From contig JBBTTD010000005.1 in assembly GCA_038064415.1 (NCBI GenBank), forward strand, positions 2,149 to 66,148: a stretch of 64,000 nt of DNA. The letters run 5' to 3'. How positions within the stretch are numbered: position 1 is the first letter of the stretch; every line of letters begins with the position of its first letter. Origin of the DNA: Patescibacteria group bacterium (lineage in GTDB: Bacteria; Patescibacteriota; Minisyncoccia; Phycocordibacterales; PALSA-1337). Shown in pieces: positions 4,037 to 59,712 of this stretch. The notes under the pieces are model-generated. The model had not been told where the DNA came from. It was given only the letters and a program-made list of their open reading frames with translations, and did not search any database. The translations under genes were made by a program, and so were the position numbers.

Positions 4037-4083
4037 TGCATTAATCAGTTACGAATCTAATAATGCAATTAGCGTATCAGAGT

Positions 4084-4138
4084 GAAATCAAGAAATAATA
4101 AAGATTTGATCAAGATTTGATCAAGATTCTAAAATGTG
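4084..4138. promoter_or_regulatory. Copy 1 of repeated ~55-bp promoter/operator module (GAAATCAAGAAATRATAAAGATTTGATCAAGATTTGATCAAGATT)
   Basis: Near-identical copies at 4688-4742 and 17011-17068. Contains tandem 11-bp TTGATCAAGAT units. Minus-strand reading gives TTGATC-18nt-TATTAT pointing into the 907-aa gene; plus-strand reading gives TTGATC-18nt-TAAAAT. Confidence 0.45.
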
Positions 4139-4669: not shown

Positions 4670-4687
4670 CTCTTTACCCTATCACCT

Positions 4688-4742
4688 CGAAATCAAGAAA
4701 TGATAAAGAAACGATCAAGATTTGATCAAGATTAAAAAATGT
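4688..4742. promoter_or_regulatory. Copy 2 of repeated promoter/operator module
   Basis: About 90% identical to copies at 4084 and 17011. Confidence 0.45.
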
Positions 4743-4796
4743 GGCGTATTCCCCCATGTCCTTAGCGAGGTCTCACATCGCTAATCAACCCAAAAC

Positions 4797-8644: not shown

Positions 8645-9195
8645 TTTGATTTTTATAATTTAACGCACCTTCCCCTATTTAATAATAAAGACGAGGGAAA
8701 TTAATGCGGTTTGTAAACTAATAATACTTTCCACATTTTCCGCATACGCTATCGACACGCAAACGAAAAATTTTGTGGCAATTTAGATATTAAATAATTG
8801 AACAAGAGAACGATTTAACAATCCAACGGTTAAATTAATAAAATTGAACTACTAAACAATTCAACTGATCAATCATCTAACATGATTGAACTTTTGACTA
8901 TCTATTATGTTGTCAAAGTTCGTTACTTGTCCGTTGTCGATTCTTTAAAATCGGTACGCGACTCCCACAACACTATCGAAATGTTCTGGGTACGAATGCA
9001 TAAATAAATTTACACACTCGTTACAAAACATTATACCCTACCAGTAGATAGCATTGCAAAACACTATGTGGATAACGGATCAAACCGTAAAAACTTACGA
9101 AAAATGGCTACATTTATTAACTTATAAGTAATATGGGTATGTTAGCTGTAATACGGCTCAAAGTCAAGGAAACCTTTCATTTTCGTGATTAACTT

Positions 9196-9221
9196 GTCAT
9201 TCCCGCGAAAACGGGAATGAC
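9196..9221. repeat. Palindromic hairpin element GTCATTCCCG-CGAAAA-CGGGAATGAC (family 2; second copy at 20602-20624)
   Basis: Perfect 10-bp inverted repeat, 3' of gene 9274-10065. No U-tract. Confidence 0.6.
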
Positions 9222-13018: not shown

Positions 13019-14134
13019 ATGCCTATACTAAAAGGAAAGGTTAGCTCTCGACATGGGTCGGGAAAAAAAGAAAACGAAAACTCTCGTGGAGTCTCCTCTG
13101 TGCTTGAAGAGATTAATGAAGCAGGTAAATTAGAATCAAAAACTGAAAACAAAAAACATTCAACTAGAATCTCTGACGCGCTTGACGCGATCCGCACAAA
13201 ATTTGGCGAGGATTCCATCATGAAGCTTGGCGACAAGCCAAAAGTAAATGTAAATGCCATCCCGACCGGATCTCTCGGACTAGATTGGGCACTTGGCATC
13301 GGTGGTATGCCTCGTGGACGAGTTATTGAGATATTTGGTCCAGAATCATCCGGAAAGACCACTTTAGCTCTACATGTAGTGGCCGAAGCTCAAAAGCGTG
13401 ACGGCGTATGTGCTTATATTGATGCCGAACATGCCATGGACCCAGAATATGCCACCAAACTTGGCGTGAAGATCAATGATTTACTCATTTCCCAGCCAGA
13501 TACGGGCGAACAAGCTCTAGAAATCGTGGACAGCCTTGTCCGCACGGGAAAAATGGATGTGATCGTCATTGACTCCGTGGCCGCTCTCACTCCCCGCGCC
13601 GAAATTGAGGGCGATATGGGCGCGCACCATGTCGGCGCTCAAGCCCGTTTAATGTCCCAAGCACTCCGAAAACTAACGGCGATCGTCGCCAAATCAAAAA
13701 CTGTCATTATCTTCATAAACCAGATTCGTATGCAAATTGGAGTGATGTTCGGCAATCCAGAAACTACTTCGGGCGGTAAAGCTCTGAAGTTTTACGCGTC
13801 TGTTCGTCTAGATATCCGCAGAATAGCTCAAATTAAAAAAGGCGAAGAAATCATGGGTGGACGCTGTCGCGTGAAAGTAGTAAAAAACAAAGTCGCCGCG
13901 CCATTCAAGCAGACGGAGTTTGACCTGATGTACAACGAAGGTATTTCCCAAGAAGGAGAAATTATCGCGCTTGGAGAAAAATACGAGATCTTGTCTAAGT
14001 CTGGATCTTCTTATTCATTCGGCGAAATAAAGCTCGGTCGTGGATATGATGCCACAAGACAATTTCTCAAAGAAAATGCGGCGGTGAAAAATGATATATT
14101 GAAAGTGATCCGCGCGAGATTGAGTCAACAGTAA
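13019..14134 (+). CDS. recA: Recombinase RecA (with unusual ~45-aa N-terminal extension)
   Basis: Walker [10 protein letters not shown], Walker [12 protein letters not shown]1/L2 loop motifs. The core RecA sequence begins around [10 protein letters not shown]. Confidence 0.95.
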
Positions 14135-15343: not shown

Positions 15344-15350
15344 AGACAAA

Positions 15351-15463
15351 GAAAAGGTGGCACGCATATTTTGAGAGACCTTGCGAGCGCGACTGGCGCG
15401 AGCACGAGGAATTTTTCAGCAGAAAAATATCCGTGTCTCTCAAAATATGCGTGCCACCTTTTC
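15351..15463. repeat. Long inverted repeat (29-bp perfect arms GAAAAGGTGGCACGCATATTTTGAGAGAC / revcomp) with 55-nt GC-rich loop containing a nested hairpin
   Basis: Arms at 15351-15379 and 15435-15463 are exact reverse complements. Sits between convergent efp and rpsR, so a candidate bidirectional terminator or structured element. Confidence 0.7.
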
Positions 15464-15481
15464 TTTGGTAGATCTTGACAA

Positions 15482-16830: not shown

Positions 16831-17010
16831 TTGTTTTGCAGTCAGCGACCCTAGTGGAATGTTCCCTTCAGGACCTCTTGATAAGAGGGCTTACTGCGAT
16901 TACTTATAATATGATACGAGACTAACATGGAATTTACCTCTACGCAAGAGTATTGTATTCCTCGCAGGTTAGGAATGATATGTGGTGGAGGTGATTTGAA
17001 TATAACATCC
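16831..17010 (-). promoter_or_regulatory. Putative rpsF 5' leader (possible S6:S18 autoregulatory element)
   Basis: 180-bp ORF-free segment between module copy 3 and the rpsF start. Established knowledge of rpsF leaders; no motif verified. Confidence 0.25.
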
Positions 17011-17068
17011 CGAAATCAAGAAATGATAAAGATTTGATCAAGATTTGATCAAGATTGGAAAATGTTGT
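17011..17068. promoter_or_regulatory. Copy 3 of repeated promoter/operator module
   Basis: GAAATCAAGAAATGATAAAGATTTGATCAAGATTTGATCAAGATTGGAAAATGT. Minus-strand -35 TTGATC / -10 TATCAT points to the rpsF-ssb-rpsR operon. Confidence 0.45.
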
Positions 17069-17964: not shown

Positions 17965-19470
17965 CTACTTCCTCGCGAACAATGGCTGTACCGGGGTCTT
18001 TTTATCAATAATCAGTTTTTTAATAGTCTCTGAAGTATTTGGGAGAATCGGCGTCAAAAGATTCGCAATCAGCCACAACTCTTCCAATAAATACTTAACC
18101 GCTTTCTCCCCCTTTACTCTATTTTCTTTGATAAGTTTAAATGGGGCATTTTCAGCGATATATTTATCCGATTTCATAATTCTTTCCCAAATCTCATCAC
18201 AGACTTTATTGATTTCAAACCCAGCTAACTTTTTGTCAAATTCTACCCAATCAACTGGTCCTTTTGTATTTTTTTCTTGAATCTTAGATCTTGAATCTTG
18301 AATCTTTCCCGTATCAATCCACACCTCATTTGTTTCCGCCATCTTCAAAATACGACTGGTTAAATTTCCGATACCATTCGCAAGATGAGCGTTGTACCCT
18401 TCTTTGAATTTCTCCATTGTGAATGGACTATCTCCAAATGGACTCAGTCCACGCGCCACATAGTAACGCAAAGCATCTGTGCCATATTCTTTGACAATTT
18501 CCACAGGATCAACAGTATTACCTAGTGATTTAGACATTTTCAAACCGCCTTCACCTGTAATAAAGCCATTGATTACAATGGTATGAGATGGCGGTAATCC
18601 TGCGGCCATCAACATCGCTTGCCACATCGCCGACTGCTGGCGAAGGTTATCTTTGCCACAATATTGAACTACCCCACCAGTTTCCACCCACCATTTCTTA
18701 AAAGCGCCCGCAGACTTTTTGCCAGCAATTTCATCATCAGGCCAACCAACAGTAGAAACATAATTAATTAATGCGTCAAACCAAACATACATGACATGCG
18801 CAGAATCATTTGGCACAGGTATTCCCCACGGCATCTTGGTTGCCAAACGAGAAATGCTAAAATCTTCCAGACCTCGTCCCACGAAAACTTTAATTTCATT
18901 GAGTCGAAAGTCTGGAATCACAAATAACGGATTTTCCAGATACAAATCAAGTAACTGTTTTTGAAAAGCGCTGAATCTGAAGAAATAATTTTCTTCATCA
19001 ATCAAAATCAATTCAGTGGTCGGATGAATAAAACAATGCCCATTCTCTAGTTCAGTATCAGTTATTTCAAGTTCACATCCAGGGCAATATTTGGTTTTAT
19101 ATAATTTTTTATAAATAAACCCGTTTGCATCGCACCGACGCCAAAATTCTTGCGCCGCTTTAGTATGATGTCTATCGGTAGTTCGAATGAAATGAATATC
19201 ATCACTCAATCCGAGAACATCTTTGAGCTCTCTGAATTTGATAACATATCGATCAACAAATGCTTGGGTATCTTCATTAAAATGGAAAGCTTTCTGATAT
19301 ATTTTAACACCATGTTCATCCGTGCCAGTATTGAAAAATACCTCATGTCCCGCAAGTTTTTTGACCCGCGCGATAATGTCGGCGCGAATAATTTCCATGG
19401 CAAAACCAATGTGCGGTTCAGCGTTCACATATGGCAGAGTCGTCGTGATGTAAAAAGGTTTTTTGTTCAT
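17965..19470 (-). CDS. metG: Methionyl-tRNA synthetase
   Basis: 501 aa. HIGH-type motif (PHIGFAMEII), KMSKSLGN, CXXC zinc knuckle (CPGCELE). Confidence 0.92.
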   Translation of the reverse strand: MNKKPFYITTTLPYVNAEPHIGFAMEIIRADIIARVKKLAGHEVFFNTGTDEHGVKIYQKAFHFNEDTQAFVDRYVIKFRELKDVLGLSDDIHFIRTTDRHHTKAAQEFWRRCDANGFIYKKLYKTKYCPGCELEITDTELENGHCFIHPTTELILIDEENYFFRFSAFQKQLLDLYLENPLFVIPDFRLNEIKVFVGRGLEDFSISRLATKMPWGIPVPNDSAHVMYVWFDALINYVSTVGWPDDEIAGKKSAGAFKKWWVETGGVVQYCGKDNLRQQSAMWQAMLMAAGLPPSHTIVINGFITGEGGLKMSKSLGNTVDPVEIVKEYGTDALRYYVARGLSPFGDSPFTMEKFKEGYNAHLANGIGNLTSRILKMAETNEVWIDTGKIQDSRSKIQEKNTKGPVDWVEFDKKLAGFEINKVCDEIWERIMKSDKYIAENAPFKLIKENRVKGEKAVKYLLEELWLIANLLTPILPNTSETIKKLIIDKKTPVQPLFARK

Positions 19471-19480
19471 GCGGAATGGG

Positions 19481-20599
19481 CTAATTTTGAACAGAATTTT
19501 TAACCGCTTCCCTCTCGGCTATTTCAACTTTTTTATATTTCTCAATATCATGAATATATTCCATGAAAGCGGCCGAAAGGGGCACCGCGATCAACGCGCC
19601 AAGCACTCCGGCTAATTTTGCGCCGATTACCAGAGCCAAAATAACCACAATCGGCGATATGCCAACCACTTTTTTGACCACAAGCGGATAAAATAATTGG
19701 CTCTCAAATTGGTAAATAATAAGATAAAGACCAATTAAAAGAAAACCTGTGCCAATGCCATTTTCGGTGAATGCCACGAGAATCGCCGGAACTGACGCGA
19801 TCATTGGGCCAAAGACTGGGATAATTTCCAAAATTGCGGCGAATAAAGCGAGCAGTAACGCGTGTTTAATTCCGACTACCATAAGCACAAGGTATACGAG
19901 TACACCGACGACGATGCCGAGCAAAATCTGACCCTGAAGCCATAGGGCGATCTTACGCTGTGAGCGTTTCCATAAATCTATAATGTAGTTGTGATGTTTT
20001 ACCGGGGTGACTATTCGCAAGAAATCATCAACCCCATCTTCTTTAACTGCCAAATAAAATGACAAAACGATTATTAAAATCAATGACAAAAATCCTCCGA
20101 AAATAACACCCGCGGTCTTAAAGACTCCCCCGCCAGTACCCAAAATTAAATTCTGAAAACCTTTAACATATTCCGCGACCGAAATTGTTTGTCCGACCAC
20201 TGGTGGTGAATTTGAACTAAGACTAATACCAATATCACGAATCGGACTCCAAATGTCATCTAAAGATATAGTACTCGGTAGACCATTCAAAAAATCACTG
20301 GCTTCATTGAGCACTAGAGGCATAAAGAATACAACTATTCCAGCCAAGACCGTGGCAATGATAACATAGATTAAAATCACGCTGATGATTCGGTGTACTT
20401 TATGTCTCTTGAGACGACGAATTACTGGTTCAATAGCTGAAGCTAGGATGATCGCGGCCAAAACCACTAAAAGTACATCGGAAATATAGTAAGCGGCAAC
20501 CAATAATATGGCAAAAAGGAAAAATCTGACAATCGTTCCTGTATTGAGATTTATGTGAATATCTCGGGATAAGTCGGACATGGAATTATTGTAACGCAT
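19481..20599 (-). CDS. AI-2E family transporter (PerM/YhhT-like permease)
   Basis: 372 aa, 8 predicted TM helices, sequence pattern of UPF0118/AI-2E permeases. Confidence 0.8.
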   Translation of the reverse strand: MRYNNSMSDLSRDIHINLNTGTIVRFFLFAILLVAAYYISDVLLVVLAAIILASAIEPVIRRLKRHKVHRIISVILIYVIIATVLAGIVVFFMPLVLNEASDFLNGLPSTISLDDIWSPIRDIGISLSSNSPPVVGQTISVAEYVKGFQNLILGTGGGVFKTAGVIFGGFLSLILIIVLSFYLAVKEDGVDDFLRIVTPVKHHNYIIDLWKRSQRKIALWLQGQILLGIVVGVLVYLVLMVVGIKHALLLALFAAILEIIPVFGPMIASVPAILVAFTENGIGTGFLLIGLYLIIYQFESQLFYPLVVKKVVGISPIVVILALVIGAKLAGVLGALIAVPLSAAFMEYIHDIEKYKKVEIAEREAVKNSVQN

Positions 20600-20601
20600 T
20601 T

Positions 20602-20624
20602 GTCATTCCCGCGAAAGCGGGAAT
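20602..20624. repeat. Palindromic hairpin GTCATTCCCGC-GAAA-GCGGGAAT (family 2, GNRA-type loop)
   Basis: Same stem sequence as 9196-9221. Lies in the 45-bp gap between two minus-strand genes. Confidence 0.6.
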
Positions 20625-20644
20625 CTACGGTGTCAGAATTTTCA

Positions 20645-21913
20645 TCAAAATGAAAAATAACTCTTAAATCCTTCCCCGTCCTTAAACTTCCCCACCACCG
20701 CCATATTCAATCCTCCATTAATAAAAATTTCTCTGGCCAATTTTCGCACATCTTTTACCGTGACTTTTTCCACCTTTTTAATAATTTCTTCCGGCAACTC
20801 AATTTTCTTTTTCAAAATCTCCTGACCACCGCAAAATTCAGCGCGCGCTTCGGAAGTCTCAAGTTCCAGCATTGTGGTGCCAGCAATATAATCCTTGGCT
20901 TTTTTAAGCTCCGCCGCCGAAACCAGTTCATCTCTAAACTTTCTGCATTGCGCCAAAATTTCCTTGACGGCTTCTTCAACACGACTATTATCCACGCCCG
21001 CGGAAATAGTTAGAACTCCATGATCAGTAAATGGATCATGATTGGTTTTGACATAATAGCAAAGACCGAGCTCATCACGCATTCTGGTAAAGAGACGCGA
21101 GCTCATGCCTTTTCCTAGAATCGTGGACAAAACATGCATGACTGGTATCCTCTTATCTAAAATCGGAAAAGTCCTGACGCCGATAACTAGATGGGTCTGA
21201 TCTGTTTCTTTGAATTCAGTCTGAATTTTTGGCGCCTCTTGAGATTCTGTGACTTTGATCTTGTCACTCTTTTTGCCTGAATACATCTTTGCGTAAGCTC
21301 TTTTTATTTTCGCGATACAGTCTTTTTCATCAAATGAACCGGAAACTACAACTGTGGTGGCGCTACTGACATAATGTTGGTCGCGATAATCTACTAAAAC
21401 ATCACGAGTAAATGCTTTGACGTTTTTTTCCGTACCGGCAATAGACCACCCAGCGGGCTGATTTTCGTAGAGGACTTCCATGAATATTTCCTGAACTCTA
21501 GATTGCGGCATATCATTGTACATTCTGATTTCCTCAACAATCACTCCTTTTTCTTTTTCCATTTCTTTCGCCGGAAAAAGTGGGTTTAGATACATATCAG
21601 AAACAATATCTAAAATGGTATCCATATGGCGCGAATCGGCTTTAGCATAGTAGCCGGTATATTCATGGCCGGTAAAAGCGTTGTATTGGGCGCCGATGCT
21701 ATCTAACTCGCGGGAAATATCACCACTTTTAGGTCGTCTAGGAGTCCCCTTGAAAACCATGTGTTCCAAAAAATGTGAAATGCCATTGTTTTTTTTATTT
21801 TCATACTTTGATCCCGCTTCAACCATGACTAAAACAGTGACAGATGGGTTGTCTGTCATAGGAATCGTGATAATACGCAGACCATTCTTGAGAGTAGTTT
21901 TATTGAATCTCAT
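20645..21913 (-). CDS. M16-family zinc peptidase (insulinase-like)
   Basis: 422 aa. Inverted zinc motif HFLEH near the N-terminus; two-domain M16 architecture. Confidence 0.88.
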   Translation of the reverse strand: MRFNKTTLKNGLRIITIPMTDNPSVTVLVMVEAGSKYENKKNNGISHFLEHMVFKGTPRRPKSGDISRELDSIGAQYNAFTGHEYTGYYAKADSRHMDTILDIVSDMYLNPLFPAKEMEKEKGVIVEEIRMYNDMPQSRVQEIFMEVLYENQPAGWSIAGTEKNVKAFTRDVLVDYRDQHYVSSATTVVVSGSFDEKDCIAKIKRAYAKMYSGKKSDKIKVTESQEAPKIQTEFKETDQTHLVIGVRTFPILDKRIPVMHVLSTILGKGMSSRLFTRMRDELGLCYYVKTNHDPFTDHGVLTISAGVDNSRVEEAVKEILAQCRKFRDELVSAAELKKAKDYIAGTTMLELETSEARAEFCGGQEILKKKIELPEEIIKKVEKVTVKDVRKLAREIFINGGLNMAVVGKFKDGEGFKSYFSF

Positions 21914-22083
21914 AGGGTAAATGTAACAGAAAACTTATAAATAGACTAACTTTTCTATATATTCTCGTAAAATAATATACCACACCCCAATTAAAAATGT
22001 CCCGCGCTTTTGGAAAAGCGCGGGACAAGAGCAAAAGTCAAAGTACAAAGCGCAGAAAGTGCACAGTGACCCAGTCTTGAGAA

Positions 22084-22740
22084 CTAACTTGCGGACACCA
22101 CGGCCGGACAGTCGTCGCCCCAGTCACCGTCAAGCCAACTGCAGCCCCAGCCCCACCTGCCGCCGCCCCAAGAGAGGTAACGGACATAGAGGCGGCCATC
22201 GGAGCTGCGGTAGATTGTACCCCAGAAAAAGATGTAGTGAGTGTTTTCCTTTTCATCTTTTTTCCACATCTCGGGAATGAGGTGCGGATTCTTGAGTAAA
22301 TAGTCCAGAACATTGGCGTTCAAGACCGGTTGTTTGGCGAGGTCTTTACGGAGCTCGTCACCTACGATGACATTTCTTTTCTTTTGTGGCTTAGACAGAT
22401 AGAAGTCAATTTTCTTACCGTCTAGGTAAAGATCATCACCTTTCCGTTCTAGCTTCGCCACCTTACCTTTCCGGTGCTCTTCCACCTTCCAACCATCGGG
22501 TAGGAACGGATCCGTACCAAGGTCTATGGCGTGTTCAATCGGTTTGATTTCGGCGTGGCCTAGTTGAACATTCCTCACATTGGCGAGAAAATCTCCCTTT
22601 GTAAGTCCTTTGACTTCGTCCAACGACTGAAAGCCGTTGCGATTGAGTGCATGCTCAATTTCTTGAGCCAAACCGACACTAAGACTGATTAACTTGTCAC
22701 TCATATGACTTGTCTTTCTAATAGTTGTGGACATGTTCAA
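22084..22740 (-). CDS. Hypothetical protein with Trp/Gly-rich C-terminal tail
   Basis: 218 aa. Last ~45 codons lie in a locally GC-rich segment (21914-22200) and encode ...YLSWGGGRWGWGCSWLDGDWGDDCPAVV. No recognised domain. Confidence 0.45.
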   Translation of the reverse strand: MNMSTTIRKTSHMSDKLISLSVGLAQEIEHALNRNGFQSLDEVKGLTKGDFLANVRNVQLGHAEIKPIEHAIDLGTDPFLPDGWKVEEHRKGKVAKLERKGDDLYLDGKKIDFYLSKPQKKRNVIVGDELRKDLAKQPVLNANVLDYLLKNPHLIPEMWKKDEKENTHYIFFWGTIYRSSDGRLYVRYLSWGGGRWGWGCSWLDGDWGDDCPAVVSAS

Positions 22741-31175: not shown

Positions 31176-32963
31176 CTACATCTTCTTCGGGACTTTTATC
31201 CCCAAAATCCACAACCCATTTGTCATCGTGGTCAAAAATGCTTGCGTCAAAGCCAATCTATACGAAGATTGAGGATCTTTCTCGTCAATAATAGTTTGAA
31301 CTGCATAATAATTATTGAAAGCTCCAGCCAGATTGACCAGATAGTTTGCCACCTGTTGAGGTGAATATTCTTCTCTGGCACGCTCTACAATATCTGGAAA
31401 TCTGAAAATCAATTTTTCCAATAATGTAACTTCGCTTGGTATGCTTTCATTTTGAATCTTGAATCTTGAATCTTGAATCCTTGCCTTTTCTAACACTGCC
31501 GCCGCCCTGACCGCCGAATATTGCAGATACGGTCCCGAATCTCCTTCAAATGAAATAGATTTAGTTGAATCAAAAATAACATCACCGCCGATTGATTGAC
31601 GGAGAATTGTGTATTTGATCGCGCCGATTGCCACAATGTCAGATATTTCATTTTTGTCCGTCAGACTCAATTCGCGAACGGCGATTTTTTTAGCCACCAA
31701 TTCGCGAATATCCTCAAGTAATGACTCTGCCGAAACAATATTACCTTTTCTGGACGACATCTTTCCTGAAGAAAAACGAAGAAGACCATGTGAAATGTGT
31801 TTGGTTTTCGTGAAAATGTTTTGATCAATTAATGAAAACGCTTTCAATAATACTTTGAAATAATCACCTTGTTCATTCGCCGTAACAATAATTGACCCGT
31901 CTAAATCCGGATATTTCTTGAACTTCTCAATATTGAGACCAATTTCTTTGGCTTCATAAGTTGGCAATCCTTGAGAGGTGATGAAAACACGCGTATGTAG
32001 ATCATAATCTTCACCTTTGAAAATTATAGCACCCTCGCTTTCGGTAAATACTCCCTTTTTAATAAATTCACGCACAACCTTTACACCATCGGTGGCGACT
32101 TCACTCTCAAAGAAAAACTGATCAAATTTCGTGCCAAGTCGCTCGTAAATCAAATCGAAATATTCCAAGCTCCATTTTCGACCCTGTTCATATATTTCAT
32201 TGATTTTGGGATCGGATTTCCCAAATATCTCCTTGTTAATCATGGCAATTTCCTTCTGCGCGGTAGCATCATCATCAAATTTTGCCCCATAAACATACAT
32301 TTCACCCAACCATTTTACTTTTTCGGTTACTGTCTTCTCTCCAATCCCTAGTCTCCAATTTTCAAATCCTTGTTTCTTCAGTATCGCCCAAATAGTTTTC
32401 GCCACATGCAATCCGACATCGCCTTGATAACAAGCACGAATGACATTACCGCCAGAAGATTGGATTAATCGTGAAATTGATTCACCAACCGCATTAGACA
32501 TCAAATGACCGATATGAAAAACCTTGAAAGGATTCGGGTCAGTATACTCAACCATTATTTTTTTACCAGAATCGGAATTATTCCAACCATACTCTTTCCC
32601 ATTTTTTGCAATCGTCACAACATTTTCTGCAAAAATTTTATCTTTGATTTTGAAATTTATGAATCCGGGACCGGCAATGGTGATTGATTGAACAAAATCC
32701 GGTTGTCCTTTTTTTAGTTCAACAATAATCAACTCCGCCATTTCTTTTGGATTTTTAGGAATTTTCGATTTTTCAATTACCCAAGAAATTTTCCCGATAT
32801 GAGAATCGACTAAACCTGCAAATTTTTTAAAGGTAACCATAGCCACATTACTGGAAAAATCTCCATGATCTGGATTTTCCGGATACTCTAAAGTAAAAGA
32901 TGTCTCGGTTATGCCGAGTCTATTTAGAGATTTGATTATTTGACCCTGAAGCTTTTCCTTCAT
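31176..32963 (-). CDS. argS: Arginyl-tRNA synthetase
   Basis: 595 aa. HIGH motif (FHIGHLMS) and C-terminal DALR anticodon-binding domain. Contains an in-frame (GATTCAA)x4 microsatellite at 31447-31478. Confidence 0.92.
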   Translation of the reverse strand: MKEKLQGQIIKSLNRLGITETSFTLEYPENPDHGDFSSNVAMVTFKKFAGLVDSHIGKISWVIEKSKIPKNPKEMAELIIVELKKGQPDFVQSITIAGPGFINFKIKDKIFAENVVTIAKNGKEYGWNNSDSGKKIMVEYTDPNPFKVFHIGHLMSNAVGESISRLIQSSGGNVIRACYQGDVGLHVAKTIWAILKKQGFENWRLGIGEKTVTEKVKWLGEMYVYGAKFDDDATAQKEIAMINKEIFGKSDPKINEIYEQGRKWSLEYFDLIYERLGTKFDQFFFESEVATDGVKVVREFIKKGVFTESEGAIIFKGEDYDLHTRVFITSQGLPTYEAKEIGLNIEKFKKYPDLDGSIIVTANEQGDYFKVLLKAFSLIDQNIFTKTKHISHGLLRFSSGKMSSRKGNIVSAESLLEDIRELVAKKIAVRELSLTDKNEISDIVAIGAIKYTILRQSIGGDVIFDSTKSISFEGDSGPYLQYSAVRAAAVLEKARIQDSRFKIQNESIPSEVTLLEKLIFRFPDIVERAREEYSPQQVANYLVNLAGAFNNYYAVQTIIDEKDPQSSYRLALTQAFLTTMTNGLWILGIKVPKKM

Positions 32964-33045: not shown

Positions 33046-33401
33046 TGACAAATAAGGCAATATCGGTTATATTCGTTCTAGACATGTGGAGCTTTGTTTG
33101 GGTCAGCTTCACTGCGTGAACTCGCGCGACAAGTGCTCCCTCTCCGGAGCCTCTAGCGCGACCATGCTAAGGAAAGAACTCCGACAAGAAGTTCACTTCT
33201 AATTCAGACGATGAATCGGTTCCTCGAGACATCTGGAGGTCCATGACTATCCTCCATCGCCGTCGCCGACGGCATCTTGCATGTCAATTGTCTGAAAGAA
33301 GACCTCAAATACTCCCTTGCGTCCGCGGTGCTTGTGCTACACCATCGCGAGGGAGTACCCACTTTTTAGCGCGGTTTGTTTAACCGCGCTTTTTTAATTT
33401 T
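33046..33401 (+). ncRNA. Candidate structured non-coding RNA (~320 nt) with own promoter and terminator; identity unknown
   Basis: Consensus promoter TTGACA-17nt-TATATT at 33046-33076. GC-rich ORF-free body with many local hairpins. Intrinsic terminator GCGCGGTT-TGTT-AACCGCGC plus T-run at 33369-33401. Confidence 0.4.
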
Positions 33402-41925: not shown

Positions 41926-42723
41926 TTAAGCTTTAGGCTTAACGGACATTGCCAGACGAGCAGCCATGAGCGAATGCGAATGAGCATGCTTGAGCCAGTA
42001 GAACCTGACCTCGCGGAAACCCGGATACGGACTCCAGCGGCCGCTGGCAACCCCGCCACCCGGAAGGCGGTTCTTGGGGAACCATGTCCATGTTTCCAGA
42101 TCAAGATAATCCTTGAAAGCGAAGTAGCGAAGGCCGAAAGCCAGTGCATACCCACGCAATTCCAAGTACGGCTTGCCGTCAGCATTGAGTTGGTTCGAAG
42201 ACTGACCATAAGTGCCTTCAGTCGGACGAATTGAGTTTTCAATGATCTGGAGCGTCGGTTGGCTGAATGCTTCAGACCGCTTATACTCCATAACATTGCT
42301 TTCTTCGTACACTGAAAGTCTTTGACTCTTGAGTGCCTTCTCAACCACTTGATGGTTGTCGAGGCCTGGGTCAAATGCCAACAGTACATCCTTCCACGGG
42401 AGTTCGGCGGGAAAATCAAACATCTCCCGCAAATTGGCCGTGACGCCGAGGAATTTTTTGGCGAAACGTTCTGTGACTGGAATTATTTCATCCAGATTGG
42501 TCTGCTTCGCTTTGAATGTTCGAGGAAACTCGAACACTGGAACTGGAGATGTTACGACTTGCGGCGTTGACTGTTCCACGAAAACGCTTTCAATCGCCTT
42601 CCAGTATGGATGGTCAGAGTTTCCGATGATGTTCTGCACATCACCATGTTCGGGGTTAAATGATTGGATCTTGGTGGCCGTACGACCAGCCAAAGCCATG
42701 ATAGTTTCAGGACTTGCTTTCAT
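41926..42723 (-). CDS. Hypothetical protein in a locally GC-rich segment (possible horizontally acquired gene)
   Basis: 265-aa ORF. The 41850-42850 segment is visibly GC-richer than its flanks and both strands carry long overlapping ORFs, so frame choice is uncertain. No recognised motif. Confidence 0.45.
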   Translation of the reverse strand: MKASPETIMALAGRTATKIQSFNPEHGDVQNIIGNSDHPYWKAIESVFVEQSTPQVVTSPVPVFEFPRTFKAKQTNLDEIIPVTERFAKKFLGVTANLREMFDFPAELPWKDVLLAFDPGLDNHQVVEKALKSQRLSVYEESNVMEYKRSEAFSQPTLQIIENSIRPTEGTYGQSSNQLNADGKPYLELRGYALAFGLRYFAFKDYLDLETWTWFPKNRLPGGGVASGRWSPYPGFREVRFYWLKHAHSHSLMAARLAMSVKPKA

Positions 42724-42857: not shown

Positions 42858-43865
42858 TTATTTTGTAGACCACCTAGCAAAAATGCCCGCCGGCAACAGT
42901 CGCGCCTGCGTTCCTTCTTTATTTGTCTCTTTATCTTGTGATTCTTGACCCTTAGTTCCTGATTCCTGTATAACCAACTCCCCCATTTCAATCTCGCCGC
43001 CATATTTATTTTTCAATTCAAGTAAATTGTTTGCATAGGCGATCGCTGAATAGCCCGCTGAATATCCATTAACCAAGAAAAATGACGGTTTGTTTTTCAA
43101 TAATTTTTTACAATCTTCCATGAGTGACAGAAAATGTTCTTCAACCTTCCAAAGTTCATTCGTCGGACCATGGCCAAAAGCTGGTGGATCCATGATAATG
43201 CCGTCATATTTTCGTTCACGTTTGATTTCTCTTTCAACAAACACGCGCGCGTCTTCAACAATCCAACGGATCGGCGCGTCTTTGAGTCCTGAAATTTCCG
43301 CGTTTTCACGAGCCCAAGCAACCGCGGATTTTGAACTGTCTATGTGAACAACTTTAGCTCCAGCTTGCGCGCAAGCTAGCGTAGCGCCTCCCGTGTAGCC
43401 AAAGAGATTTAATACTTCGATGTCGCCATGTTGCGCACTCTCTCGGCGCGAAGAGTTCTCCCTTCGTTTCGCTTCGCTCAAGTCGGGAGAATCTGTCGCA
43501 CCTACGAGTGCGACTGACGATATGAGTTTCCTAAGCCACTCCCAATTTGGCAACTGTTCCGGAAACAAGCCAGTATGTTTAAATGCTGTGGGTTTGATCC
43601 AGAATTTTAAATCGCCAAAAGAGATCTGCCACTTAGCTAGCACATTCTTTTTGAGCGACCAGCTCCCCTCTTTTTCTCCACGAGTAAAATTACCATCAGA
43701 TTTTTTCCACTCTGAAGTTGACAATTTCTTCTCCCACAAAGCTTGAGGATCTGGTCGTGATAAAACTATCTTGCCAAATCGCTCCAATTTTTCCCCATCA
43801 CCAGAATCTAGAAGTTCATAGTCGGAAGAAGCGGCGGTTATGAGGATTTGAGAAATGTTAGACAT
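42858..43865 (-). CDS. Class I SAM-dependent rRNA methyltransferase, RlmI/RlmK-like (COG1092 family), with an in-frame GC-rich hairpin-element insertion
   Basis: VLNLFGYTGGATLACAQAGAKVVHIDSS...DGIIMDPPAFGHG...FFLVNGYS matches the YccW/RlmI MTase core. Nt ~43430-43516 form an ~87-nt GC-rich palindromic element encoding ...SPDLSEAKRRENSSRRESAQHGD... Confidence 0.78.
   Translation of the reverse strand: MSNISQILITAASSDYELLDSGDGEKLERFGKIVLSRPDPQALWEKKLSTSEWKKSDGNFTRGEKEGSWSLKKNVLAKWQISFGDLKFWIKPTAFKHTGLFPEQLPNWEWLRKLISSVALVGATDSPDLSEAKRRENSSRRESAQHGDIEVLNLFGYTGGATLACAQAGAKVVHIDSSKSAVAWARENAEISGLKDAPIRWIVEDARVFVEREIKRERKYDGIIMDPPAFGHGPTNELWKVEEHFLSLMEDCKKLLKNKPSFFLVNGYSAGYSAIAYANNLLELKNKYGGEIEMGELVIQESGTKGQESQDKETNKEGTQARLLPAGIFARWSTK
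43430..43516. repeat. GC-rich ~85-nt hairpin repeat element (family 4), copy A, inside the methyltransferase ORF
   Basis: Reverse complement aligns at roughly 85% with 50836-50915 (shared GCGACAG-TTCTCCC...GGGAGAA...CGCCGAGAG core). Confidence 0.6.
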
Positions 43866-44916: not shown

Positions 44917-45523
44917 ATCCTTGAGGATTAACTATCACTTTACCATTCACGAAAAATGTGGGGGTTGAATTGACACCTAGCGTGTCTCCTTCATCACGAT
45001 CTCTCTGGATCCGAGCTTTTATTTCAGCGGAACCAAAATCTTTTTTGTATGCCGTCATATCTAAATTCAGACTTTCCGCGTATCCTTCAAAAATAGCCGA
45101 AGCGGTATTGGAATCTTGCCAGACAGTCTGATTTTCAAAAAGAAGTTTGTACATGTCCCAAAATTTACCTTGTTTGCTGGCGGCTTCCGAGGCCTGGGCG
45201 GCAAAAATTGAATTTTTGTGTGGCAGTGGAAACAGTGGGAAGTGGCGATAGACAAAACGAACCGTAGTTGATGCTTCTTTGGTTAGGCGTTCAATTATCG
45301 GATAATAGAGAGCACATGCTGGACACTGAAAATCACTATATTCAATAATAGTGACTGGAACATTGGCTGGACCAAGAATGTGGTCTGTGGAAGTTGCCTC
45401 TGAAGGAGTACCGATCCCAGGTCCGACCTTGGGTGCTTTGTTCATGGCAACAGCAAGACCCCAGACAATTAGGGCTAGAATCAATAGAAAAAATATCCAA
45501 AAAATGATGTGTTTTGTGTTCAT
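44864..45523 (-). CDS. DsbA-like thiol:disulfide oxidoreductase
   Basis: 219 aa. N-terminal TM anchor, thioredoxin-fold CPAC motif (FQCPACALY). Confidence 0.85.
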   Translation of the reverse strand: MNTKHIIFWIFFLLILALIVWGLAVAMNKAPKVGPGIGTPSEATSTDHILGPANVPVTIIEYSDFQCPACALYYPIIERLTKEASTTVRFVYRHFPLFPLPHKNSIFAAQASEAASKQGKFWDMYKLLFENQTVWQDSNTASAIFEGYAESLNLDMTAYKKDFGSAEIKARIQRDRDEGDTLGVNSTPTFFVNGKVIVNPQGYEQFKALIDATASGGAK

Positions 45524-45561: not shown

Positions 45562-45588
45562 GCAAATCAAGGTCGGACCTTGATTTGC
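45562..45588. repeat. 27-bp perfect palindrome GCAAATCAAGGTC-G-GACCTTGATTTGC (family 1)
   Basis: 13+1+13 inverted repeat in the gap between the DsbA start and the stop of gene 45590-46144. Confidence 0.65.
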
Positions 45589-48892: not shown

Positions 48893-49453
48893 TTATTCTT
48901 TACAACAGTCTGCTAACTTCTTCATGATTTCTTCCAAGCTATCACTTTGCTTGTTGACACTGCTGACCCCCATCGAATTGCCAGTCGCCTTCTGAATGTC
49001 CACTTCTTCTGTTACCTTCTTCACGCCAATAAGCTTCAATTTGAGCGCCCAGAAAATAGTATAGGTCTTGTAGGCTTTCTCAAATGTCTGACGAGCAAGT
49101 TTTTTCTTATTTTCTGATTGTAGTTTATTTCCCACTTCAATCAATCGCATGGTAACAGCCAAAAGGTGTTTGGACGCGCACCATGTCTCCCCTTCATGGT
49201 TGGGCATAAGCTGCGCGAGCAATTCTTTACGCAGATTGCGCACCTCTTGTGCCGTGTCAAAGTATTCTTCTTTTTTTGTCTTGACGCCAGTAAAGAAGAA
49301 GTGCTCCTCAAGTGAGATCAGGTTCATGACGGCAATGCTTAAGTCTTCGGTAGTTGAAAGATCAACACCGCCTTCTTTTCTGGCTAATTCTATTTTTGTC
49401 ATAAATTCTTCAAGTGACTCGAGGTCCGACCTTGGAATGTTTTGTGATTTCAT
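48893..49453 (-). CDS. Hypothetical cytoplasmic protein (N-terminus encoded by a family-1 palindrome)
   Basis: 186 aa. Codons 6-12 (IPRSDLE) are encoded by CCAAGGTCGGACCTCGAG at 49419-49436. Confidence 0.5.
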   Translation of the reverse strand: MKSQNIPRSDLESLEEFMTKIELARKEGGVDLSTTEDLSIAVMNLISLEEHFFFTGVKTKKEEYFDTAQEVRNLRKELLAQLMPNHEGETWCASKHLLAVTMRLIEVGNKLQSENKKKLARQTFEKAYKTYTIFWALKLKLIGVKKVTEEVDIQKATGNSMGVSSVNKQSDSLEEIMKKLADCCKE

Positions 49454-50760: not shown

Positions 50761-50835
50761 TTTAGTAAGAATTAAAGATTGTGAATAATAGAACTAGGAA
50801 TAAACACAAAAACTTACGATTAAACGTAAGCGTTA

Positions 50836-50915
50836 GCCGCGCTCGCAGGCGGCGACAGTTCTCCCGACTTGAGCAAAGCGAAGGGAGAATCCTGTCGCGC
50901 CGAGAGGGCGCGGTT
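50836..50915. repeat. GC-rich hairpin repeat element (family 4), copy B
   Basis: GCCGCGCTCGCAGGCGGCGACAGTTCTCCC-loop-GGGAGAATCCTGTCGCGCCGAGAGGGCGCGG; imperfect long palindrome, about 85% identical to the reverse complement of 43430-43516. Confidence 0.6.
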
Positions 50916-51349
50916 TAATTCATCGACGGACTGTTTTCAAAAAGAGAAAGCCAACGAGTTAATTTTCTGCTCCGTAAACCAATAGACGGAGAATCGTATA
51001 GAATACGAGCAACCGCTGGTGGTCCGAGTAACGGCGAACTTATCAAAATAAATAACGCGGCGCAAACTGCAAAAAGTAAAGAAACGATTAACGCTGTTAA
51101 ACCTGAACCAACGGGCATATTAAGAAATGATTGATAGGCGGAAATATGGTGGATCGCCACGGCAACTGTATCTTGTGGACAGATTGATTGACCAACTACT
51201 GAAAAAGGACAATCACCCTCCATTCGTCCATCTGGTCCCCGCGTCATCACCGCAAAACTAAAAATCGCGACCGTAAGGAACGATGTGAGGACAAGCACGG
51301 TGATGATTTTTTTGGATAAAAAAGATGACATGTAGATTAATGACAACAA
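50915..51349 (-). CDS. Hypothetical membrane protein
   Basis: 144 aa, 2-3 TM, CPFS...CPQD cysteine pair. Confidence 0.5.
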   Translation of the reverse strand: MLSLIYMSSFLSKKIITVLVLTSFLTVAIFSFAVMTRGPDGRMEGDCPFSVVGQSICPQDTVAVAIHHISAYQSFLNMPVGSGLTALIVSLLFAVCAALFILISSPLLGPPAVARILYDSPSIGLRSRKLTRWLSLFENSPSMN

Positions 51350-51894: not shown

Positions 51895-54267
51895 TTATAA
51901 TTTCTTACTTTTAATTCGAAGGGAATTCCCGACAACCGACACCGATGACATAGCCATTGCAAACCCGGCGATTACTGGACTGAGTAGCCAGCCGAAGAAT
52001 GGGAAAAACACTCCGGTCGCAAGCGGAATACCGACAATATTATAAATAAACGCCCAGAATAAATTCTGTTTAATTCCTCGCATAGTCATCTTTGAAAGCT
52101 TGATTGCCTTCACAAGCTTTGAAATGTCACCGCCAAGCAAAGTGATTCCAGCTGATTCAATTGCCACATCCGTACCAGTCCCCATTGCGACACCGACATC
52201 GGCTTGCGCGAGCGCCGGTGCGTCATTCACCCCATCACCAGCCATAGCTACGATATGACCTCGCGATTGAAGCATTTTTATTTTCGCCAATTTATCTTGC
52301 GGAAGGACATGGGCAACGACATCATCAATACCAACAAGCGCGGCCATGTGTTTCGCGGCTTTTTCGTCATCGCCAGTAAGCATAACCACTTTAATACCGA
52401 GCTTGTGAAGATTGGCAACAGCCTGTTTAGATTCAACCTTTATTTCATCGGCGACCATAACAAAACCGAGCACTTTCTCTTTAGTCGCAAGAATAACCGG
52501 AGTTTTACCTTGCGCGGTAAATTGCTCAATCTTCGTGGAATCAAATGATAGCCCGAGATCTTTTATAAGCTTGGTATTACCAACATAATATTCAATGTTT
52601 TTAATTGACCCTTTCAGCCCTTTTCCTTGAATGGCTTCAAAACTTGAAACATCTTCCGCGACGATGCTCTTTTCTTGCGCATAATTAACAACCGCGTGAG
52701 CAATTGGATGTTCCGACATTTTTTCAAGTGAGGCCAGAATAGATATGAATTCTGATTCCCCAAGTCCAAGGTCCGACCTTGGACTGATTTCAATATTAAC
52801 GAGAGTCGGTCGTCCAATCGTAATCGTCCCAGTTTTATCAACAATAACCGTATCAACTTTATGAAGTTTCTCTAAAGTCGCCGCGTCCTTGATTAAAATT
52901 CCTTCTTTGGCGCCTTTACCAACTCCAACAATGATCGCGGTTGGCGTGGCAAGTCCTAGCGCGCATGGGCAAGCGATAACCAAAACACCCACAAATGAGA
53001 CTAGCCCAAAAGATAGTGCTTGCGAAAATCCAAGTGAACCGATACCAATAAGTAACCACAAACCCAGAGTAAGAAACGCGATGACTAAAACAATTGGCAC
53101 AAAAACACTTGAAATTTTATCCGCCAGAGCTTGAATTGGAGCTTTGCTTCCCTGCGCCTCTTCTACCATTTTTATTATTTGAGCAAGCAAGGTCTCTGAT
53201 CCGATTTTGGTAGCCCTAAATTTGAAATACCCACTCGTATTTATCGTACCGGCAACTATATTGTCTCCAATTTTCTTTTTAGCTGGCATCGGTTCGCCCG
53301 TCACCATTGACTCATCTACAAAAGATGAACCATCAGTAATTATTCCATCAACGGGAATTTTTGCGCCCGGCTTTATGACGATAATATCGCCATGTTTAAC
53401 ATCATTTACGGAAATCTCCATTTCTTTACCATCACGAATAACTAATGCTGTCTTTGCCTGTAAATTTAGCAACTTTTCTATAGCATCACCGGTCCTAAGT
53501 TTAGATCGTGCTTCCAAATATTTCCCAAGTGCGATAAAAGTAATGACAATGATCGTCACGTCATAGTAAGTATTTTCAATATTTATGAATGATTTAAGCG
53601 TATCTCCAAACGCGCTTATTGAAAGACTGTAAAGATATGCGGAAACAGTACCGATACCAATCAGAGTATCCATGTTTGCTTTACCATATCGCAAAAAACG
53701 GTAGAATCCGAGAAGGTACGGTTTGCCAACGACAAATAGCACATAAGTTGCCATCAGAGGCATCGCAAAATCAAAAAACTCTTTGACCACGCCACCCATT
53801 TCCAAAATAATGTCGTATCCCGCTAAGATGCTCCACCCCATGACAAAAACACTGATCACCGCTAACGGAATCGCGGAGATTACTTTTGCTTTCATGTCTT
53901 TAATTTCAGCGAGTTTTTCTTGCTTTGATTGACTAAGGCCTAAATGGGTCGCGTGTTCATCCGCGGACATGCCCATTTGTTCAGCTGACATCTGCATTTT
54001 ATTGGCATTGGCGGTTGTAGATCTAGATAAAGTCTTAACTATTGAATCATTCGTGTTTGGAATAATAAGTGAGTACCCAAACTTCTCAATTTTCCGCGAG
54101 AGATCGGTCGGATTTGTTTTTGACTCATCAAATGCCACCTTTGCCGTCTCGGTCCCATAATTGACTTCAATGGAATGAACGCCATCAATTTTTTTGAAAG
54201 TCTTTTCAATGATACTGGCGCATGAAGCGCAGTGCATTCCTTTTATTCTGTAAGTTTTGGTATTCAT
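51895..54267 (-). CDS. copA: Copper-translocating P1B-type ATPase
   Basis: 790 aa. N-terminal HMA (GMHCASC), CPC in TM6 (IACPCALGLATP), DKTGTIT, HP, GDGVNDAPAL. Confidence 0.93.
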   Translation of the reverse strand: MNTKTYRIKGMHCASCASIIEKTFKKIDGVHSIEVNYGTETAKVAFDESKTNPTDLSRKIEKFGYSLIIPNTNDSIVKTLSRSTTANANKMQMSAEQMGMSADEHATHLGLSQSKQEKLAEIKDMKAKVISAIPLAVISVFVMGWSILAGYDIILEMGGVVKEFFDFAMPLMATYVLFVVGKPYLLGFYRFLRYGKANMDTLIGIGTVSAYLYSLSISAFGDTLKSFINIENTYYDVTIIVITFIALGKYLEARSKLRTGDAIEKLLNLQAKTALVIRDGKEMEISVNDVKHGDIIVIKPGAKIPVDGIITDGSSFVDESMVTGEPMPAKKKIGDNIVAGTINTSGYFKFRATKIGSETLLAQIIKMVEEAQGSKAPIQALADKISSVFVPIVLVIAFLTLGLWLLIGIGSLGFSQALSFGLVSFVGVLVIACPCALGLATPTAIIVGVGKGAKEGILIKDAATLEKLHKVDTVIVDKTGTITIGRPTLVNIEISPRSDLGLGESEFISILASLEKMSEHPIAHAVVNYAQEKSIVAEDVSSFEAIQGKGLKGSIKNIEYYVGNTKLIKDLGLSFDSTKIEQFTAQGKTPVILATKEKVLGFVMVADEIKVESKQAVANLHKLGIKVVMLTGDDEKAAKHMAALVGIDDVVAHVLPQDKLAKIKMLQSRGHIVAMAGDGVNDAPALAQADVGVAMGTGTDVAIESAGITLLGGDISKLVKAIKLSKMTMRGIKQNLFWAFIYNIVGIPLATGVFFPFFGWLLSPVIAGFAMAMSSVSVVGNSLRIKSKKL
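52763..52785. repeat. 23-bp perfect palindrome AGTCCAAGGTC-C-GACCTTGGACT (family 1) inside copA, translated as SPRSDLGLG
   Basis: 11+1+11 inverted repeat within the copA ORF, between the DKTGT and HP motifs. Confidence 0.7.
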
Positions 54268-54873: not shown

Positions 54874-55692
54874 TTATTCAGCCGACACCCTGAAGAACTT
54901 TTGAGGAACCGTGTCCAATGAGATGAGATTCAACGGAAACGAATACGAATTTGTATTAGCCCCTGGGTTACTTAAGCTCCAGTTCGTTGCGATCGGCACT
55001 CCGTTCGTATACCACACTTGCAATATACTAGCCGAACTTATCCATCCAGTTATCGAACACTCCTTCTGCCAGGTAACAGGATCGGCCAGGTTTGTGGTTG
55101 ACATTATGGTTGAAGCCATAAGAACAGTGTATGGCACTCCTAGCGGGTCATTGAACGCGCTGTTTGTCCTGGAGTATTCATAGATATTCCACATGTTTAC
55201 TCCAGTGGAAGCAGAATTCCACGATCCTCCATTTGTATCACCTGGGTTGCCGAGATAAAACATGATGCCAGGGAAGTCACCGCTCCCTGTCTGGGCTTCG
55301 TTAAGCTGGATCATCGCGCTTGCGCTGTGGTTTGTGTTCGTCCCCGGGTTAGGCGGAGGCGGGGGAGGGCTGGGTGGAGGAGGAAGAAGCTTGTCACAGA
55401 GCTTTTTCAAACCCCTGATGAGAATATACCCCACAACGATGATGACGGCAGCAATGGCAACGGCGTCACCGTATCCGCAAGAAGGTATTACATACGTCGG
55501 TGATATCGTTGAATTCAGACCGACATCTGTTCCAACAACATCAGTTGCCTCCGAGGATGGGGACGACCTTTCGATGATGGTCGCGTTTGTCGTTCCTTGA
55601 GCATGCATGGGCGACAGTGTCGCCATAATGCCCACAAGAAAAACGGTCACGACCTGACATTTCAGCGTCTTGGTGAACTTGAGCGTTTTCAC
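54874..55692 (-). CDS. Secreted/membrane hypothetical protein with polyproline linker (PPPPSPPPPPPNP)
   Basis: 272 aa. Signal peptide, TM segment, Pro-rich linker, Asn/Ser/Thr-rich C-terminal domain. Locally elevated GC. Confidence 0.55.
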   Translation of the reverse strand: MKTLKFTKTLKCQVVTVFLVGIMATLSPMHAQGTTNATIIERSSPSSEATDVVGTDVGLNSTISPTYVIPSCGYGDAVAIAAVIIVVGYILIRGLKKLCDKLLPPPPSPPPPPPNPGTNTNHSASAMIQLNEAQTGSGDFPGIMFYLGNPGDTNGGSWNSASTGVNMWNIYEYSRTNSAFNDPLGVPYTVLMASTIMSTTNLADPVTWQKECSITGWISSASILQVWYTNGVPIATNWSLSNPGANTNSYSFPLNLISLDTVPQKFFRVSAE

Positions 55693-59470: not shown

Positions 59471-59495
59471 AGTATCAAGTGCTTACAAATTCTTG

Positions 59496-59567
59496 TCCCC
59501 TCGGTTGGAATCGAACCAACATCGACGGCTTAGAAGTCCGCAGTTCTATCCATTGAACTACGAGGGG
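59496..59567 (-). tRNA. tRNA-Arg (anticodon TCT)
   Basis: Acceptor CCCCTCG/CGAGGGG, D-stem GTTC/GAAC, anticodon loop CTTCTAA, T-arm GTTGG-TTCGATT-CCAAC. 72 nt, no CCA encoded. Confidence 0.75.
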
Positions 59568-59603: not shown

Positions 59604-59637
59604 GGCTTCATGTCCGCAGTTCTATCCATTGAACTAC
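59604..59637 (-). pseudogene. Exact duplicate of the 5' 32 nt of tRNA-Arg (acceptor 5' strand through anticodon stem)
   Basis: GTCCGCAGTTCTATCCATTGAACTACGAGGGG repeated 36 nt upstream of the intact gene. Confidence 0.55.
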
Positions 59638-59712
59638 GAGGGGTCATCATATTGATAACTAAGACACAATAACCGACAACCAAACAACACACAAGTCCAT
59701 TGTTTGATTATT

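Follow-up and report, generated by a model that had tools for sequence, protein, structure and literature searches.

A hairpin-forming DNA element carried in frame within protein-coding genes of Paceibacteria-like Patescibacteria

Two inverted copies of the element in the window

The DNA analysed here (the window, meaning the whole stretch of 64,000 nucleotides) belonged to a MAG of Paceibacteria-like Patescibacteria recovered from groundwater at Hainich, and its GC content was 40.6% (0.406). One copy of the element lay inside a gene for a predicted RNA methyltransferase and the other between genes. The features at the two sites are given below, with the basis of each in brackets where it applies.

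43431-43516, minus strand: copy A of the hairpin element (core defined by the covariance model; blastn, folding)
43463-43484, minus strand: apical loop of copy A, GACTTGAGCGAAGCGAAACGAA (alignments)
42858-43865, minus strand: host gene of copy A, predicted RlmI-related methyltransferase of 335 aa (Pfam, PDB, AlphaFold)
50834-50915, plus strand: copy B of the hairpin element, intergenic, in the orientation opposite to A
50866-50882, plus strand: apical loop of copy B, GACTTGAGCAAAGCGAA (alignment)
50915-51349, minus strand: upstream neighbour of copy B, an ORF of 144 aa with no Pfam match, the stop of which touches the element
50812-50831, minus strand: small hairpin resembling a terminator, with a T-run, immediately following copy B as read on the minus strand

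A preliminary description of this DNA, made from its letters alone, had reported two GC-rich segments, and both were found where it placed them, with the ends refined from 43430 to 43431 for copy A and from 50836 to 50834 for copy B. The two copies were reverse complements as claimed, at an identity lower than the ~85% originally given (79.5% over 88 columns, E 2.7e-14, by blastn within the window; 74% in the structure-guided alignment). Their GC contents of 0.58 (A) and 0.66 (B) against 0.406 for the window agreed with a GC-rich element in an AT-rich background. The covariance model scored A at 102.9 and 100.8 bits and B at 79.8 and 76.4 bits. Neither blastn of A nor the covariance model detected a third copy in the window above chance. 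The GC-rich patches at 21914-22200 and 33100-33360, which had been put forward as places for further copies, were not matched by blastn or by the model, and by the same two means the patches delimited at 21900-22240, 33081-33360, 41950-42120, 52142-52274, 55266-55424, and 13522-13691 were non-members. Several of these patches were located inside ordinary genes, such as those for RecA and a P-type ATPase, and 22000-22030 was a simple perfect hairpin.

The methyltransferase matched, at 100% identity, a protein with the annotation 'MAG: Patescibacteria group bacterium', and was present on a contig of 71,391 nt (well H41) as well as in an independent assembly of 26 kb. L087 and L088, two Hainich assemblies independent of each other, both contained copies A and B. 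Judged by the methyltransferase gene, the nearest named relatives were Candidatus Taylorbacteria, Nomurabacteria, and Adlerbacteria. The called genes, which covered most of the window, included none with a transposase, reverse transcriptase, or integrase domain.

Other repeats and gene fragments were observed in and next to the window. The longest inverted repeat was a perfect one of 33 nt (15347-15379 and 15435-15467) with a spacer of 55 nt. A family of 70-nt direct repeats, 81-83% identical and containing GATCAAGATTTGATCAAGATT, occurred at 4069-4138, 4674-4743, and 16997-17066, and repeats of the related motif TTGAATCT were located at 18270-18315 and 31445-31490. An exact 32-nt part of the tRNA-Arg gene (59495-59567) was duplicated, at 59536-59567 and 59612-59643, 76 nt apart. 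Either a partial duplication of the tRNA or a scar left by integration could account for it. On L097, a 92-kb contig from well H51 that belongs to the same organism as the window, an ORF for a LAGLIDADG homing endonuclease was found at 20452-20946, a few kb past the left end of the window. Introns in rRNA genes are common in CPR bacteria, and this ORF may sit in one.

Copy A in the methyltransferase gene and copy B at a stop codon

The host gene of copy A matched PF10672, PF03602, and PF09445 in Pfam, and 2igt (8e-63) and RlmI (3c0k, 8e-9) in the PDB. By these similarities its product is classed as a class I SAM-dependent RNA methyltransferase related to RlmI. Copy A was in frame in ORF 42858-43865, where it coded for about residues 117-146, and its peptide ...SSVALVGATDSPDLSEAKRRENSSRRESAQHGD was directly followed by IEVLNLFGYTGG, so that the reported position immediately before SAM motif I held. 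The palindrome of A may extend to 43424-43519 (CGTCAG...TGGCG; 96 nt, 32 codons). The linker occupied by the copy was typically ~20 aa long across 84 orthologous loci, versus 47 aa in the enzyme of the window. On this comparison copy A is an insertion relative to most orthologues, as had been suspected of its 29-aa segment. Moreover, those orthologues that did bear the element differed in codon phase and in peptide and did not share the segment as a conserved protein sequence.

In the AlphaFold model (mean pLDDT 84.9), residues 125-149 formed a coil with pLDDT values of 53-66, bounded by a confident helix (102-124) and by the strand 150-154, which is the first Rossmann strand and carries motif I. 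The closest solved homologue, 2igt, matched in two stretches, the better of which began just after the insert, at residue 148. In the predicted structure, the position of the insert is compatible with the fold of the protein. A second hypervariable loop of low pLDDT was observed in the same enzyme at residues 301-322 (window 42900-42960; GTKGQESQDKETNKEGTQA), and its length ranged from 0 to ~40 residues among orthologues.

Copy B did abut the stop of ORF 50915-51349, as had been noted, since its last base was the last base of the TAA. Because the terminator-like hairpin at 50812-50831 followed on the minus strand, B appeared to be placed between the stop codon and the likely original terminator of that gene. 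B was antisense to both flanking genes, and its loops would therefore be complementary to the conserved ones in any read-through RNA. The element itself was rejected as an intrinsic terminator, given that no T-run followed A and that the minus strand at B had its separate terminator at 50812-50831.

Both copies were predicted to form stable hairpins, in agreement with the long imperfect palindromes described earlier. The minimum free energy was -43.6 kcal/mol for the minus strand of A (z -4.3) and -48.5 kcal/mol for the plus strand of B (z -4.1), and in each case 0 of 200 shuffled sequences was as stable. The opposite strands folded somewhat less well (A, -34.9 kcal/mol; B, -42.1 kcal/mol). 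Per nucleotide, A and B were more stable than every other GC-rich patch folded.

Related copies in other genomes

The exact pattern of the loop core was scanned in 185,579 species genomes and in metagenomes. It had no match in the species genomes and two in the metagenomes, both of them inside intact ORFs. One was located in a gene for a 367-aa tRNA-dihydrouridine synthase (Dus) from Hainich well H51, on a contig whose tetranucleotide composition was the closest to that of the window (r = 0.95), and the other in a 768-aa PNPase gene (L002). A relaxed core pattern found no match in viral contigs, and the core had no match among the INPHARED phages. At the protein level, a five-frame chimeric peptide query gave no scored match, and a phmmer search of 1.84 billion representatives returned nothing at E<=0.001 with a 33-aa query that was too short to be informative.

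The covariance model was then applied to ~1.4 Mb, comprising the surroundings of 80 methyltransferase orthologues and extra loci. Copies in the methyltransferase linker were recovered from L003 (P0002), L041 (Taylorbacteria), L092 (P0058), and L095 (P0051). The methyltransferases of the lineages sharing the element were only 62-76% identical to that of the window, and the stems were fully compensated. In L041 the element had decayed, and in L006 (P0003) it had been deleted down to a 13-nt remnant of the 3' end, CGCCGAGAGGGCG; both derivatives were still in frame. No further copies away from the methyltransferase site in related genomes were found within the ~1.4 Mb, and the copy number was low. 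Altogether, the family consisted of nine distinct copies from six genomes at five kinds of locus (five in the methyltransferase linker, one in Dus, one in PNPase, and two intergenic) plus the 13-nt remnant, with related copies recovered from five samples other than that of the window. The expectation that more copies exist in related organisms was thus borne out, and in the Dus and PNPase genes these were in frame.

All seven genic copies were in frame and free of stops, although stops occurred in one to two of the three sense frames. All three codon phases were in use, and the encoded peptides were unrelated. That every genic copy was open favours translation over removal. Identity to copy A was 80-87% for the copies in Dus and PNPase, higher than the 74% of B. 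A PNPase orthologue of 92% identity had no element and carried an ordinary 9-aa loop instead, so the insertion into PNPase was recent.

L095 carried a second copy, intergenic and 9 nt past the stop of a gene for a SPOUT methyltransferase. The two copies of this genome (8676-8759 and 10401-10484) were 1.6 kb apart, one after the SPOUT gene and one in the RlmI-like gene. They were 81% alike, versus at most 74% to any other copy, and had lineage-specific stems and an AT-rich loop in common, a pattern pointing to gene conversion or copying inside this genome.

The conserved structure of the element

The element was 78-87 nt long, and its whole length formed an imperfect inverted repeat that folds as a hairpin with three helices. 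An outer helix of 7 bp was followed by an asymmetric internal loop of 3x4 nt (GCA on the 5' side, GAGA on the 3' side), an inner helix of 17 bp with one bulge, and an apical loop of 17-22 nt that began with GACT and finished with ACGAAG. A GCGAAGC mini-hairpin was usual in the apical loop and was present in that of A. In several copies the palindrome extended outward to CGTCAG...TGACG. Copy A had 25 Watson-Crick pairs and one G-U among its 26 pairs.

Across the nine copies 94.8% of the cells were paired, and changes on both sides were found in 22 of the 26 pairs. When partners were slid the pairing fell to 33-56%, and 0 of 500 shuffles reached the observed values. A sequence-only alignment of five copies (MAFFT) still gave 10 of the 26 pairs with compensatory changes, so the covariation was not merely an artefact of fitting to the model. 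Conservation of the unpaired columns (0.83) was slightly above that of the paired ones (0.76), and the loop motifs GACT...ACGAAG and GCA/GAGA were constant even between copies of only 38-60% identity. Since the genic copies used three codon phases and encoded unrelated peptides, the alignment indicates that the hairpin is conserved and the peptide is not. Folding specific to one strand, as would be expected of RNA only, was considered and set aside: one strand folded better in eight of the nine copies, yet 9 G-U against 5 A-C cells gave no clear strand preference.

The preliminary description had further taken the inverted loop as what would be expected of an element that is flipped when its arms recombine. 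The inversion of the loop, as read on the plus strand, was real, but an inversion of the loop only, within fixed arms, was not seen. Arms, GCA/GAGA internal loops, and apical loop were all inverted together, and A and B thus differ by inversion of the whole element.

Other inserts in the same loops

Two loops were observed to be hot spots of insertion across Paceibacteria, namely the linker that precedes motif I in the methyltransferase and the GLMM..EYKVLTD loop of PNPase. They held dozens of unrelated inserts (linkers of L007-L092; PNPase loops of P0121-P0240), several of which recurred in groups of orthologues, and some of which occurred elsewhere in the same loci. Many were long, near-perfect hairpins, including those of L034 (130 nt, z -11.8), L018 (25-bp stem), L091 (160 nt, -91.7 kcal/mol), and L072.

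A short palindrome with the core AGGTCCGACCT was present in the window at 45419-45440, 45568-45582, 49422-49443, and 52767-52790, partly within ORFs, with PKVGP and PRSDL as its translations. In Candidatus Nomurabacteria (L018, 10340-10420), the methyltransferase insert has a 25-bp stem formed by this core, and to judge from these matches the palindrome may represent another hairpin family. The hairpin GTCATTCCCGCGAAAGCGGGAAT occurred twice between genes, at window positions 9195-9218 and 20601-20624, and translated forms of it (VIPAKAGIQ, SFPRKRESS, RFRGNDK) were seen in the methyltransferase linkers of P0020, P0074, and P0081. The preliminary description had called the element of copies A and B a second, distinct family tolerated inside a protein. 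A distinct repeat family tolerated in frame in a protein loop is what we found, and the GTCATTCCCGCGAAAGCGGGAAT hairpin is presumably the 'first' family which that wording implied.

Discussion

By analogy with known repeats, the element is probably a low-copy, duplicative palindromic element of Paceibacteria that is translated when intragenic, and so a functional Patescibacteria counterpart of the Rickettsia palindromic elements (RPEs) and of intragenic REPs and MITEs. It would be copied to new chromosomal sites by some mechanism at the DNA level, although we infer the transposition itself. The related copies at five unrelated loci, with one recent insertion, support such a spread. Copies would survive only where they are harmless, either in spacers beside stop codons or as stop-free, in-frame segments of surface loops. 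A genic copy would then pass into the transcript and add 25-30 hydrophilic residues to the protein, as the intact ORFs imply. The hairpin may be conserved because specific loop bases serve copying or some interaction with the host.

As an alternative means of upkeep, the quasi-palindrome may correct itself by intrastrand template switching. Such correction of quasi-palindromes is established and can yield covariation in DNA palindromes. It would, however, leave the conserved loops unexplained.

Against a duplicative element stand the low copy number, the failure to define a target-site duplication or a clean empty site, and the lack of transposase, reverse transcriptase, and integrase domains among the called genes over most of the window. 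In addition, stems compensated and shared between lineages, with unpaired motifs kept slightly better than paired ones, look more like a constrained functional structure than like a selfish insert in decay. The label 'selfish' given to the element earlier is at most plausible. A methyltransferase copy shared by several lineages, with compensated stems and conserved loop motifs, is not what free decay of an insert would be expected to leave. The main alternative is that the element is a functional stem-loop of RNA or single-stranded DNA under purifying selection, putatively bound by a protein, with its spread to other genes secondary. We regard it as possible but doubtful. The covariation of 22 of 26 pairs, the constancy of GACT...ACGAAG and GCA/GAGA, the higher conservation of unpaired than of paired columns, and the persistence of the methyltransferase-linker copy across lineages all favour it. 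So do the different codon phases of the orthologous methyltransferase copies, which place the constraint elsewhere than on the peptide, and the fact that all three host genes encode enzymes acting on RNA (RNA methyltransferase, Dus, and PNPase). However, most orthologues of the host genes have no element, and L041 and L006 show its decay and its deletion, respectively. The antisense position of B relative to both neighbours, the lack of a clear strand bias (9 G-U versus 5 A-C), and the lack of an Rfam match also argue against it, and covariation within a DNA palindrome can also arise from template-switch correction.

We also offer two linked ideas as a tentative proposal that is unlikely to hold: Paceibacteria would possess a large undescribed repertoire of hairpins that settle again and again in a small set of permissive loops of housekeeping enzymes, among them the methyltransferase linker and the GLMM..EYK loop of PNPase, and the present family, far from being junk, would be a constrained stem-loop recognised by a protein. 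The motifs GACT...ACGAAG and GCA/GAGA and the GCGAAGC tip would be read by a dedicated protein such as an HUH-type nuclease or an RNA-binding factor, and compensatory evolution would keep the hairpin inside the ORF across lineages with methyltransferases only 62-76% identical to that of the window.

It is improbable, in our estimation, that the element is an oversized or dimeric CGTC-tagged REP moved as a single-stranded hairpin by a RAYT or by an HUH transposase of the IS200/IS605 type. The 5' end read CGTCAG in A, L092, and both copies of L095, with the complementary TGACG end in L092, and CGTTAG, TGTTAG, and TGCTAG were among the other forms. In terms of the tag, CGTC was present in the same four copies, CGTT, TGTT, or TGCT replaced it in B, L001, and L002, and it was absent from L003 and L041. 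The literature on REPs describes a CGTC tag that decays to TGTC or CCTC, places RPE-4 and RPE-6 among the CGTC REPs, and reports that dimers fold into larger hairpins, that units inside genes code for 20-30 aa, and that REPs are frequently located directly 3' of stop codons (PMC3733652). REPs are only 20-40 nt long, however, and those of the CGTC type have an 8-9 bp stem and a 4-5 nt loop (PMC3733652), against the 78-87 nt and three helices found here. No visible target-site duplication accompanied the copies, as HUH transposition predicts; none could be defined at the compared copies or at the empty PNPase site. TA/CA dinucleotides did flank some copies, implying an insertion of 86 nt, but they were not accepted as proof of a target-site duplication, for 86 is not divisible by 3 and would break the frame, and in the nearest PNPase gene free of the element the loop differs, which obscures the junctions and leaves no clean empty site. 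The CCA tail is absent, the tag occurs in only four of the nine copies, the copy number is far under that of REP families, and no gene for a RAYT or Y1 transposase was seen among the called genes at any locus.

Proteins devoid of the extra residues, through excision of the intragenic copies from the message or bypass by the ribosome, seem very improbable. With its very stable, GC-rich hairpin in an otherwise AT-rich genome, the element does resemble the bypass elements of mitochondria. Against this, each genic copy detected by DNA pattern or by the model was in frame and free of stops, despite stops in one to two sense frames and although nothing else constrains the length; the derivatives in L041 and L006 were still in frame, and the element resembled no family of introns or ribozymes. 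The idea that the copies are alike by chance, or are artefacts of assembly or chimerism, has in its favour only the small copy number and may be dismissed given the E value of 2.7e-14, the identical copies in two independent assemblies, and the relatives in five other samples.

Rickettsia supplies the best-known cases of palindromic repeats in frame within genes, and in the literature no paper on such repeats in Candidate Phyla Radiation bacteria was found. Should a translated, duplicative element be confirmed, Patescibacteria, too, would tolerate hairpin DNA in the essential genes of their streamlined genomes and perhaps make use of it, and much of the length variation in the surface loops of their proteins would be explained. 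Caution would be due in annotation and phylogenetics, since the residues encoded by hairpin inserts lack homology as protein. The covarying stems together with the constant loop bases offer a direct test of recognition by a specific factor.

Comparison with known elements

Several known classes were considered and rejected. In a search of Rfam 15 the element belonged to no family, with the best weak matches at 11-17 bits versus thresholds of 34-51.5, and only tRNAs passed in the window. As an integron attC site it failed because the termini of B (GTTAGCC...GGTTTAA) are in the reverse arrangement with mismatches to both core sites, 5' RYYYAAC and GTTRRRY 3', and most copies are in housekeeping genes. 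A template/variable-repeat pair of a DGR was discarded, there being no reverse transcriptase among the called genes within 10 kb.

Fungal mitochondria contain GC clusters, double-hairpin elements, and bypass elements, which are GC-rich palindromes in AT-rich genomes and are thought to be mobile. These inserts are found in protein-coding and rRNA genes, and some are bypassed by the ribosome. The element shares with them the character of a GC-rich palindromic insert in genes of an AT-rich genome. They are organellar and eukaryotic and some of them are bypassed, whereas the Patescibacteria element always preserves the frame.

Bacterial MITEs (Correia/NEMIS, ERIC, RUP, QMITE) are likewise small, with inverted repeats and no coding capacity of their own. 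They may be co-transcribed and may make in-frame fusions (PMC10969869). In the present element, by contrast, the inverted repeat spans the whole length and not the termini only, and neither a target-site duplication nor a parental IS was identified at the loci compared, where the called genes around the copies contained no transposase domain. REPs of the GTAG and CGTC types are also palindromic and sometimes intragenic, and a CGTC-like end motif is shared by four of the nine copies. REPs, however, are single hairpins in tens to thousands of copies, whereas the Patescibacteria element is ~85 nt long with three helices and conserved internal and apical loops, is of low copy number, and has no RAYT among the called genes at its loci.

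A close parallel was found in the RPEs (RPE-1 to RPE-10), which are hairpin-forming repeats inserted in frame into unrelated housekeeping genes that remain intact (PMC10969869; PMC3733652). RPEs add a hydrophilic peptide at sites compatible with the fold, also have intergenic copies, and reside in a small, reduced genome (PMC10969869; PMC3733652). The Patescibacteria element resembles them in its stable hairpin, in its in-frame insertion into the genes for the RlmI-like methyltransferase, Dus, and PNPase, in a position that appears compatible with the fold, and in having intergenic copies as well. It differs in being 78-87 nt long, against about 100-150 nt for RPEs, and in having far fewer copies. 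Furthermore, an RPE family conserves its peptide in one phase, whereas the Patescibacteria element uses three phases and conserves its structure. With a host phylum that is Patescibacteria and not Rickettsiales, the likeness is functional and no sequence relationship would be expected, and on this comparison we regard the element as an analogue of the RPEs and not a member.
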